26,733 nucleotides of DNA from a virus, in the UHGV virus genome UHGV-0379735. One strand, given 5' to 3'. Below, piece after piece: positions 6,001 to 9,000 of the stretch. Positions within the stretch are counted from its first letter, which is position 1. Every line of letters starts with the position of its first letter. Position numbers: made by a program.

Positions 6001-9000
6001 TAGTTCCTACTTTTAGCTGGTTTGCCATTACTATACTGGCATTTGCTCTCTGCTACTCAATAAACGATAAAATTAAAGAGCACAAGTTCGCTGGATTTAT
6101 GGCTGACATTAGCTACCCGCTGTATCTTTGCCACTCATATATTGGCTATTTCTTGATGGGGGTAATTATAAGCTTTGGCATCTTGCCAAGATCGCTTGTT
6201 GTTTTCATACCATTTCCAGTGGCTATCGGCGTTGCATACCTCATACACAAATACGTGGAAATGCCGACGCACAGAATGACTTTCTCAGGAATATTGAAAC
6301 TCAAAAAGGCATAATTAAAGGGGCTTGCGCCCCTTTTTTAGTATCCAACAGTCTGAACTGCCCCTGACCCAGATGAAGATGATTGAAGTTCCATGGTGTA
6401 ATAACCATTAAGTGGCTCACCTTCCCAATCAAGGTTAATGCGTAATACATGGCCATATTTGGTTGCATTTGACTGGGCGATAAACCCTCCAGGCTTATCT
6501 ATATCTCTCTGTGGCATCCCAGAATATACCTGATTTGCAGTATATGCCTTATCAACAGCAGGAGCGCCAATAGAGGCGGTAATTTTAGGCCACGTTCCGG
6601 AGCTGTGCAGAACATCTACAGCATACCCGGTAAGCCCGGTTGATGTTCTCCTGATCAAACATTCAATATACCCACTCCCATGAGATCCGCCAATCGACTT
6701 GATAATCAGTTTTGCAGTACCGCAATCCCATGGATTTAAAGTCTGATCCCAACATTCAGCCTTTAGGCCGCTAGGCATAGGAAAATCCACGCTGGTTAAC
6801 ACTGCCTCACCTGGCCATACTCCTCCCACAACTATTGGACTCGGTATCCTGACACTCAATGTTTCTAAATATCCTCTTCCCCATCCATTATTTGTTTGTC
6901 TGGCAAGGTGCTCGTAAATTGGCCTTATTGTCAAAGCCTGAATAAACGCTGGCTTGGATGCTGGCGCATCTGCTGCGTTATAAATACTGATAGTTTTCCA
7001 TCCCCTACCAATCAGCGTACCAATACGCTTTTGCAAGGCATCAGAGTGATTATTAGATCCACGATTTCGTGCTACAGTAACAGTGCTCTGAATTGCGTTA
7101 TAGTTTGTTTGCACAAAACTATTTTGCTCGGCGAAAGCATAGTATGAAACCCCTATAGAGGGATGGACCTCCTGTGGTTCAGAGAAGCAAAATGACAAAT
7201 TAGAGTCATCCAGCCAGCTACCAACAACATCAACTTCTGCTGCCTCTGCATCAAGATAGAAACTGTATGACGTTCTAACATATTTTCCAGCATCAAACCC
7301 ACCAATGATGCCTTGAAGCGTATATGTCTCGTAACCAAATCCCATTGTTACATTGTCAAAAGCATCAAAAAAACCAATCTGATCGCTCTGTTTGTATGGC
7401 CATACCGTTATTTCTGTAGATACTGGTCTATAAAACGGAAGCATTCCTCCGGCCATCATCATTGAACCAATTGCTTCAGCTATTCGTTGATATCCGACAG
7501 AGTTGAAGTGAATTGGGTCTGATGCGATAGAACCATATGGGATATTGTATGGTATTTCATTTGCTTCGATATATGCACAACCATATACATGAGCTAAATT
7601 TCTGATTTCCTGCCCCCAAATTTGGAACTGTTGAATATTACCATGCTGCTCATTACCACCTGCAACTGGCTGAAGAATAATAACCCCCATCCCCCAATCA
7701 ATGAATCTACGAATGAACTTCTCCATATACGTTAAATACACGTCTATCGTGGTTGATGTAGAGTCATTTATCGCATACATAATAATTGCAACATCACAAT
7801 TAGGATTATCCTGCCATGCTAAATATTCAAATCCTTGTTGTGCTGTCTGCCCGGATACTGCTCTAGTGATACTTGTTACATTCCCACCGGTACAGATAGA
7901 AAGGTATCTTGCGAGCCTTTCTGGATAGGTTACATTAGCACGACGCGTTAACCCTGTTCCGTTTGCATCTGTTGAGTTAGGATCCCAACCAAAAGTCTCA
8001 CTATCTCCCTGACAAAGGATCGATAATCCAGACTTTTTACGAAGATTGAAGTGAGCCTTGGTAAGAGCCTGAATATTTCTGTTTCTATAATCAGCGCTAT
8101 CTGATGCCAAAGTAGCGTTGCCAAGATTTGTAATGTGCTCTTGAACAGTCTTCCCATCATCAGTTCCGATTAATAAAGATCCTCCTGATCCAGACAGTTC
8201 CTGTCGCAGTTGATCTGGATCATATTTAATTACATTAGGGTAATAAAATTGCAAACCACCAACAGCATCATACACCGCCATCGAATGGCCTTTCACAGTA
8301 ACAAACTTGGCAATCTGTCCGTTATATACAGGGTAACCAGCAGCGTTAATGATGATTGGTTGCGAAACAGGAACGTGAGAACCATCCTCATTATCCACAT
8401 AAACCTGAATCTGGTTTTCAGGATTTACAGGGTCAGTGTCAATTTTACCGATATAAATTTTGCCATTGGCAACCGCTTTAAAAGAACGCGCCATAGTGAA
8501 AAGTTGCGAAGGCATCGATACGATCACATTGGCTGTAATGTCTGTCATTTAATTTGCTCCAGATACAAGGAATCGCCGCAGAGTGGCTACGGTTGGTGTT
8601 TGTTGCATACCGAAACGGTACGATTGTTGATTTGTACAGTAGGTTTTACGATGCCATTCCACCCAACTGGTGAGGCATCAAGGATGTACAGCAAATACGA
8701 CGAGGCGCAGTTTCACTTGAGACTTCCGCATGAACTTCACGCGAAAATTAAGCAGCGTGCGAAGATGAATAACAGGTCGCTGAACTCAGAGATAATTGCA
8801 GCGATTGAAGAATCATTGGCTAAACAAAGCTCTGCATCCGGTTACATTGACGATGCAGAGCGTATGGCAGAACAACAATCCGATATGGTAAAGAAAATTG
8901 TCTTTGATACGTTCAGAGATTTATATAAAAAAGACAGCAACTAACCATCCGTGTCTTTCCGTTACTTCTGGTTATCATCACTGTTCATCCAGTACATGAT

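Follow-up and report, generated by a model that had tools for sequence, protein, structure and literature searches.

A P22-anchored tailspike with a predicted SGNH esterase body and a convergent O-acyltransferase gene in an Escherichia coli prophage

The window analyzed here is the entire 26,733-nucleotide stretch of virus genome UHGV-0379735, in which we studied a tailspike gene and the acyltransferase gene beside it. The tailspike open reading frame (ORF) lies at positions 6338-8548, as first noted in a preliminary description of this DNA; it is on the minus strand, starts with ATG and encodes 736 residues. That description had proposed that the protein joins the head-binding domain of P22 gp9 to an SGNH esterase body, in place of a beta-helix, and that a membrane O-acyltransferase is encoded 23 bp away. 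Database searches bore out this layout. The whole Pfam profile PF09008 was matched over residues 1-113 (E 1.1e-63) and Lipase_GDSL_2 over residues 181-355 (E 8.6e-11, 43.1 bits versus a cut-off of 32.9), and the motifs GDSET (residues 181-185), AINDS (259-263) and DPIHFN (344-349) are present in the order claimed. The neighbor is an Acyl_transf_3 ORF at 5151-6314 on the plus strand; the two genes are convergent, and their stops are separated by positions 6315-6337. These hits are strong database matches and not chance occurrences of motifs.

The head-binding domain, which would dock the protein on the tail hub, occupies residues 1-113 (8210-8548, minus strand, as are all parts of this gene). 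In addition to PF09008, it was recognized through PDB matches over the N-terminal 117-118 residues, with an E value of 3.7e-61 for Sf6 gp14 and values of 1e-42 to 1e-48 for P22 gp9 chains. Similarity at the DNA level to the tailspikes of HK620, Sf6, CUS-3 and epsilon34 is limited to approximately 8198-8593 of the window and ends at about codon 117. The module junction falls at about residues 110-118; PDB matches to the body begin at residues 97-113, and a Cronobacter spike with a different anchor is homologous from residue 112 onwards. A linker with a long helix follows (residues 114-174; 8027-8209; helices 111-119, 123-126 and 135-170 in the model), and leads to the SGNH esterase domain (residues 175-366; 7451-8026), which was delimited with Lipase_GDSL_2, the conserved residues, the model and Foldseek. 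The codons of interest in this domain are those of S183 (8000-8002), G233 (7850-7852), N261 (7766-7768), D344 (7517-7519) and H347 (7508-7510). The remainder, residues 367-736 plus the stop codon (6338-7450), is a beta-rich C-terminal body that was defined by the model and by alignment to B2 gp48, Moo19 gp82 and SFP21A gp09, and that presumably carries the trimer contacts and the polysaccharide-binding surfaces. The protein matches phrog_19528 ('tail spike protein') over residues 1-630 and is already annotated in RefSeq as 'SGNH/GDSL hydrolase family protein', while an NCBIfam search of the tailspike gave no match.

All residues expected of an SGNH enzyme were found. G181-D182-S183, G233, N261-D262 and H347 are invariant in 44-45 homologs, and D344, of the DxxH motif, is kept in at least 90% of them; the full predicted catalytic set (blocks I, II, III and V plus the Asp) is present. 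An AlphaFold2 monomer model built with 44 homologs reached a predicted local distance difference test (pLDDT) value of about 90 over most of residues 150-736. Block means for the SGNH domain were mostly 77-96, with one block at 66, and the C-terminal body was all-beta with values mostly above 80; the head-binding anchor was poorly modeled, because few alignment rows contain it. When this model was submitted to Foldseek, the tailspikes of B2, Moo19 and SFP21A ranked at the top, followed by G7C gp63.1 and then by SGNH acetyl-esterases, namely the acetyl-xylan esterase Axe2, TesA and an aryl esterase of M. smegmatis (E 1e-8 to 1e-5, TM-scores up to 0.79 when normalized to the target). Both pLDDT and Foldseek results are thus those of a predicted three-layer alpha/beta/alpha flavodoxin-like fold, and structure prediction, which the preliminary description had put forward as a check of the SGNH fold, gave a positive answer, the hits including esterase tailspikes of known structure as well as acetyl-xylan esterases.

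We also weighed a beta-helix depolymerase body and rejected it: no beta-helix family or structure was matched in Pfam or Foldseek, where SGNH and beta-sandwich domains were obtained instead. The Foldseek matches consisted exclusively of esterase tailspikes and SGNH esterases, in line with the beta-helix being missing as first described. A right-handed beta-helix endoglycosidase, which this protein lacks, defines the classical members (P22, Sf6, HK620) and not the family of the anchor. Taken together, matches and model support a tailspike in which a P22 anchor carries a predicted SGNH esterase body in place of the beta-helix glycosidase.

The closest solved structures come from phages of a different kind. 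In a phmmer search of PDB sequences, residues 97-726 matched gp48 of the Shigella flexneri phage B2 (PDB 9D84; E 6.8e-96), SFP21A gp09 (9LNA; E 1.9e-87) and Moo19 gp82 (9D80/9D81; E 3.1e-83). Identity to the window body is 31-32%, with the linker, the SGNH domain and the C-terminal beta domains aligned end to end; Foldseek gave E values of 1e-59 to 2e-53 and target-normalized TM-scores of 0.70-0.86 (0.86 for both Moo19 gp82 and SFP21A gp09), and the SGNH motifs are kept. Purified Moo19 gp82 and B2 gp48/49 hydrolyze 4-nitrophenyl acetate, both phages need O-antigen, and their infection depends on its O-acetylation; in a gtr oacD double mutant, devoid of GlcNAc O-acetylation and glucosylation, entry was blocked completely (PMC11654681). 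However, B2, Moo19 and SFP21A are virulent N4-like or T7-like phages that employ other anchors (PF18668, PF03906) and carry no conversion genes, whereas the esterase module of the window is joined to a P22-type head-binding anchor, belongs to a temperate phage and has an acyltransferase gene as its neighbor. The E. coli phage G7C also has an SGNH esterase tailspike, gp63.1 (PDB 4QNL), whose topology is similar (Foldseek E 3.3e-13); with 11% identity and TM-scores of 0.36-0.40, it was missed by the PDB sequence search, and it represents a distinct and distant lineage of the same kind of enzyme. G7C gp63.1 deacetylates the O-antigen without cleaving the chain, in an activity that is essential and apparently processive (PMC10743462).

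In its overall design the window tailspike resembles that of g341c, a Lederbergvirus of S. Anatum (gene 14, ACN18293). This 792-residue protein likewise combines Head_binding (residues 1-115) with Lipase_GDSL_2, and its body is 31.7% identical over 76% of the window body; homology ends at about residue 479 of the 620-residue body query, and the distal C-terminal domains differ. Gene order is alike as well, with gp16, tailspike, terminator, convergent O-acetyltransferase and integrase, but the acetyltransferase of g341c is a 640-residue AT3-SGNH fusion of the OafB/GtrC(BTP1) type accompanied by gtrA, while that of the window is a 384-residue, AT3-only protein. We take g341c to be of the same lineage as phage c341, of which a baseplate deacetylase was reportedly described by Iwashita and Kanegasaki in 1976. 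O-antigen deacetylation by the tailspike of c341, a phage of S. Anatum, was shown in that year (PMC5380687). Since B2, Moo19, G7C and c341 have activities of this kind, the window tailspike is, by analogy, most likely to de-O-acetylate an O-acetylated O-polysaccharide and not to depolymerize it.

Esterase tailspikes had been called unusual in this family by the preliminary description, and this overstates the case. The same architecture is found in g341c and in phrog_19528, it is reflected in the RefSeq label, and at least eight clusters at 90% identity, from E. coli, Yersinia enterocolitica and Cronobacter dublinensis, carry PF09008 together with PF13472. The same esterase body is also fused to PF18668 and T7-type PF03906 anchors. 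At 50% identity, the body family has 277 representatives with E values of at most 1e-3, and 45 with values of at most 1e-30, spread over many Enterobacterales genera. The esterase body is a mobile module for receptor binding, and it recombines where anchor and body meet. One case was encountered in E. coli E423 (locus L024, 5383-7761), where the body of a 792-residue SGNH tailspike is 98.8% identical at the nucleotide level to that of a P22-anchored spike (locus L006). The E423 prophage looks epsilon15-like, judging by its genes for a DUF919 protein, a holin and a GH19 endolysin, and the pair looks like a recent exchange of modules between phage families.

The neighboring gene (5151-6314, plus strand) encodes a predicted membrane O-acyltransferase that consists of the AT3 domain only, with matches to Acyl_transf_3 (PF01757; E 2.2e-23) and to phrog_3333, an O-acetyltransferase family (E 4.7e-37). 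The ORF comprises 387 residues, and a likely start at ATG 5160 would yield 384. In 102 homologs H23, R96 and R99 are invariant, R12 is present in 95%, and FFxISG (residues 72-77) is kept, so that the protein displays the R-X10-H and RxxR motifs as well as about 9-10 hydrophobic segments; it is accordingly classed as a predicted gene of the lysogenic-conversion type. O-antigen conversion genes of P22-like phages are usually located in the slot that separates tailspike and integrase, as illustrated by the gene layout of g341c. Sf6 Oac/OacA and BTP1 GtrC/OafB, which are also of the AT3 family, occupy this slot in P22-like prophages and share the R/K-X10-H and RxxR motifs with the window protein; unlike them, the window AT3 has a nearest non-prophage relative whose gene is the last one in an ABC-transporter-type O-antigen cluster of Salmonella. 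These motifs, located in transmembrane segment 1 (R/K-X10-H) and in the first cytoplasmic loop (RxxR), were defined previously and reported to be essential for OacA and OafA/B, and phage-borne O-antigen acetyltransferases (Oac/OacA, GtrC/OafB) are reported to bring about serotype conversion and superinfection exclusion (PMC9558356). A tblastn search with the window AT3 against 50,697 phage records gave no close relative, the best match being 26.5% identical and from a Halomonas phage; its acceptor can therefore not be deduced from Oac, OacB or OacD. NCBIfam gave a far sub-threshold match to MdoC alone.

Directly upstream of the AT3 gene, on the same strand, lies an ORF of 65 residues (4919-5116) with two hydrophobic segments by hydropathy. 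It had no match in Pfam, NCBIfam or PHROG. Homologs with 47-57% identity stand beside AT3 genes in Yersinia (locus L005) and in two other E. coli prophages (L011, L020), in one of which the AT3 gene itself is inverted. The ORF may encode an unrecognized small membrane partner of this AT3 clade.

Between the two stops, a perfect hairpin (AAAGGGGC-TTGC-GCCCCTTT, followed by a T run; 6317-6336), identified by a terminator scan and in the sequence, fills nearly all of the 23-bp gap, and is a terminator common to both convergent genes. A profile search of genome contigs with the body alignment gave 2 loci, and linkage of esterase and acyltransferase was judged from 12 single locus look-ups. Body, hairpin and AT3 occur together, in convergent arrangement and with a gap of 23-25 bp, in four settings that represent three genera and two anchor domains. 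With the E. coli window as reference, body and AT3 are 82% and 85% identical in a defective prophage of Y. enterocolitica, 82% and 70% in P22-like prophages of Cronobacter, and 75% and 70% in a PF18668-anchored Cronobacter phage; the Yersinia cassette and the two from Cronobacter all keep the hairpin. Comparison of these sequences indicates joint inheritance of the three elements, as a single cassette, in all three genera; this speaks in favor of a functional unit, and to that extent of the enzymatically opposed pair suggested in the preliminary description. In E. coli the tailspike-AT3 pair (99.3% identity) was present in only 2 of 5,426 complete genomes, 23CRST047 and 23CRST049, which are sister isolates from Ecuador, while the head-binding part alone was matched in 1,143 of them.

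Other loci provide further views of this junction. In Y. enterocolitica (locus L003, 6001-9412; L004; L005), an intact 743-residue esterase tailspike and the AT3 gene persist in a remnant without head or ejection genes, of which a 220-residue gp16 fragment alone remains (L004); the tailspike protein is listed in 47 collection blocks. Retention of the pair could reflect clonal inheritance or selection that favors the pair within the host. At loci L011 and L012 (3391-5001), an IS3-family element lies right after the stop of a 98%-identical tailspike, and the hairpin is gone. Beyond this insertion the AT3 gene is a 58-59% divergent allele in inverted orientation, and one conversion gene has apparently replaced another at the tailspike/IS3 junction.

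E. coli chromosomal DNA makes up the left end of the window, with yfdF, mlaA, yfdC and a tRNA-Arg(CCT) gene, followed by an IntS-type integrase; the order yfdF-mlaA-yfdC-tRNA-Arg-intS is also annotated in E. coli 23CRST047. The tRNA gene (argW; 3316-3390, plus strand, identified with ARAGORN) is the integration site, and the tyrosine integrase (3516-4706, plus strand; Pfam Arm-DNA-bind_3, Phage_int_M and Phage_integrase, E 1e-39) marks the left end of the prophage. Upstream of the tailspike, 8962-23565 on the minus strand holds a complete P22-like set of virion and packaging genes, all full length by Pfam and PHROG: a gp16-like protein with an SLT domain, gp20, gp7, gp14, a needle of Sf6 type, gp10, gp4, coat, scaffold, portal and both terminase subunits, with lysis genes beyond. 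The tailspike is the last gene of this late operon, on the same strand and after the ejection proteins gp7/gp20/gp16. Since the genes for virion and packaging functions are of full length all the way from the ejection proteins to terminase, the prophage is apparently intact; the 3.4-26.7 kb portion of the window is the left arm of this P22-like element at argW in E. coli.

A divergent Mnt-like repressor gene (8669-8944, plus strand; Pfam Arc, E 9.7e-15, and Repressor_Mnt, E 4.2e-13) precedes the tailspike and is an immI remnant without arc or ant, neither of which was found in the interval up to the tailspike start (8549-8944). It is missing from the otherwise near-identical cassette of 23CRST047, where the gap between tailspike and gp16 is 131 bp, and Mnt might directly control a promoter that reads into the tailspike. 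The ejection protein at the gp16 position (8962-11730, minus strand) has 922 residues and fuses an N-terminal SLT lytic transglycosylase to gp16/DNA-transfer-like sequence; the gp16 of 23CRST047 is a plain protein of 613 residues, and that of the Cronobacter P22-like prophages is an SLT-gp16 fusion of 815. These different forms show that the prophage is mosaic to the right of the tailspike. Between small terminase and lysis genes (23000-25000), the GC content is about 41-42% versus about 51% in the flanking late genes. This stretch includes a 174-residue ORF (23593-24117, plus strand; phrog_5483) and a 135-residue ORF (24488-24895; phrog_585), both in PHROGs of unknown function, which may be morons.

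The probable substrate was approached through O-antigen clusters. A 57% homolog of the AT3 (P0066) stands at the end of the Salmonella ABC-transporter-type O-antigen cluster, next to gnd (locus L013, 1-6200). Over 3.4 kb, which span Wzm, Wzt, GT2 and a portion of WavE, this cluster shares 71.6% nucleotide identity with the homologous O-antigen genes in 23CRST047 (locus L026, about 14200-25240), the strain that carries the cassette at 99.3% identity. A colinear cluster without any acyltransferase is found in C. dublinensis (L027, 3500-11500), in an assembly other than those bearing the cassette. The family, which comprises Wzm, Wzt, GT2, WavE and a kinase-like protein of 513 residues, was thus seen in three versions: without an acyltransferase in Cronobacter, with the 57% AT3 in Salmonella, and with a 707-residue unknown protein and an AT3 of its own in E. 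coli. This last AT3, in 23CRST047, and the prophage AT3 both belong to the AT3 family but are unrelated by BLASTP. Since the 23CRST047 cluster has its own AT3, the host O-antigen was probably O-acetylated before lysogeny. Indirect but specific evidence of this kind, drawn from gene neighborhoods, suggests that the prophage AT3 acts on this ABC-type O-polysaccharide.

We consider it probable that the spike deacetylates O-antigen, that the AT3 gene serves conversion and exclusion, and that both belong to one specificity cassette. The gp9-type domain (residues 1-113) would dock the trimer on the tail hub, and from about residue 112 a module of the B2 gp48/Moo19 gp82/SFP21A gp09 type would take the place of the beta-helix glycosidase, with its helical linker, an SGNH domain (Ser183-Asp344-His347, with Gly233 and Asn261 as the putative oxyanion hole) and a distal body rich in beta structure. 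The virion would bind an O-acetylated surface polysaccharide, most probably O-antigen, and strip its O-acetyl groups while leaving the chain uncut; by analogy with G7C gp63.1, repeated cycles of binding and deacetylation may bring the tail to the outer membrane. The AT3, whose gene has the small membrane ORF upstream of it, would be expressed from the prophage and would O-acylate the same type of polysaccharide. Body, terminator hairpin and AT3 would recombine between phages as one specificity cassette, whose two proteins would both fit one O-antigen. The AT3 most likely acylates a position other than that of the ester attacked by the spike, which would lead to classical superinfection exclusion and serotype conversion. 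The comparisons establish the domain architecture, the conserved catalytic residues, the predicted fold, the homology to enzymes of measured esterase activity and the linkage within the cassette; we infer the activity of the spike, its O-antigen substrate and the relation between the two activities. For the last of these, g341c provides a precedent. Its acetyltransferase is 91.6% identical to BTP1 GtrC/OafB, which is a rhamnose 2/3-O-acetylase (PMC9558356), whereas in the S. Anatum O-antigen deacetylated by c341 the acetyl group on galactose C6 is the sole available target; the precedent therefore points to different sites.

Some points weigh against this reading: the O-antigen argument rests on 23CRST047 and not on the window's own host, the proposal of different sites rests on one precedent (g341c) and on general logic, and the C. 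dublinensis cluster devoid of an acyltransferase is a better fit to a spike acting on acyl groups written by the prophage. In such a strict write/erase arrangement, which corresponds to the opposed pair of the preliminary description, the AT3 would install the exact O-acyl group that the virion esterase removes, and in a host with the C. dublinensis cluster the prophage AT3 may be the sole source of acyl groups. Joint travel of body, hairpin and AT3 over three genera and two anchors, with broadly similar divergence, is consistent with it, and an interplay of acetylation and deacetylation has been proposed for temperate Klebsiella phages (PMC13123978). The mark of the lysogen would then exclude other phages and could be erased by the phage's own spike, as a counter-defense or in the manner of a receptor-destroying enzyme such as influenza C HEF. 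Nevertheless, we hold the strict arrangement to be unlikely. The two enzymes of g341c most likely hit different sugars (PMC9558356), and the 98%-identical tailspike is also paired with the divergent, inverted AT3 described above. Close AT3 homologs also occur beside non-esterase tail fibers and beta-helix spikes: one with 86% identity belongs to a myovirus-type prophage at argW that has no esterase, and one with 52% adjoins a beta-helix spike. Conversely, what comes after other esterase spikes is a GtrC-type glucosyltransferase gene or lysis genes, or no conversion gene at all, and the unrelated AT3 of the 23CRST047 cluster could itself supply the substrate of the spike. We are equally doubtful that the cassette is a self-contained write/erase system for one O-acyl mark that is selected as a pair. 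If it were, acylation by the prophage would shut out competitors, while virions of this phage and of others that acquired the cassette, equipped with the matching esterase, could go on infecting cells that bear the mark of resident or decayed relatives; selection for the two genes as a unit would then account for their retention in the decayed Yersinia prophage and for their transfer across tail anchors.

The receptor could also be another O-acetylated glycan (capsule, enterobacterial common antigen or colanic acid) that the AT3 would modify. The occurrence of the body family in many Enterobacterales genera would suit such a receptor, as would the linkage of SGNH receptor-binding proteins of Klebsiella prophages to capsule types (PMC13123978) and the proposal of conserved 'key polysaccharides' as receptors (PMC10743462). 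However, O-antigen is the target of the characterized relatives B2, Moo19, c341 and G7C, the AT3 homolog P0066 is encoded within an O-antigen cluster next to gnd, and in 23CRST047 frameshifts and an insertion sequence element disrupt the locus for colanic acid; we regard a receptor of this kind as quite improbable. It is more doubtful still that the SGNH domain is a vestige or has lost its catalytic activity, serving in carbohydrate binding alone, or that the prophage is defective and the protein has no role in a virion. The survival of the Y. enterocolitica cassette in a prophage stripped of head and ejection genes would agree with this; against it, four SGNH residues are invariant and D344 nearly so, the ORF is of full length, the neighboring virion genes in the window are all intact, and homologs have measured activity. 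We regard it as very improbable, and retain the deacetylating spike with a conversion gene in one specificity cassette as the probable explanation.

Protein families, chimeric architecture, enzymology of the relatives and the tailspike-acetyltransferase layout are known from earlier documentation. What we have not seen described is a three-part cassette that moves between phage types and genera and is linked to one ABC-type O-antigen cluster family, which is a modest addition. The window adds a temperate E. coli case to the growing set of deacetylating receptor-binding proteins, whose modules are exchanged at the anchor-body junction among P22-like, epsilon15-like, T7-like and N4-like phages. 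Of potentially greater weight is the linkage of esterase body and acyltransferase as a mobile two-gene cassette. If both enzymes address the same O-antigen, the cassette would offer a compact model for the effects of O-acetylation and de-O-acetylation on host range, superinfection exclusion and serotype, and for O-antigen variation that is hidden from serotyping based on gene clusters.

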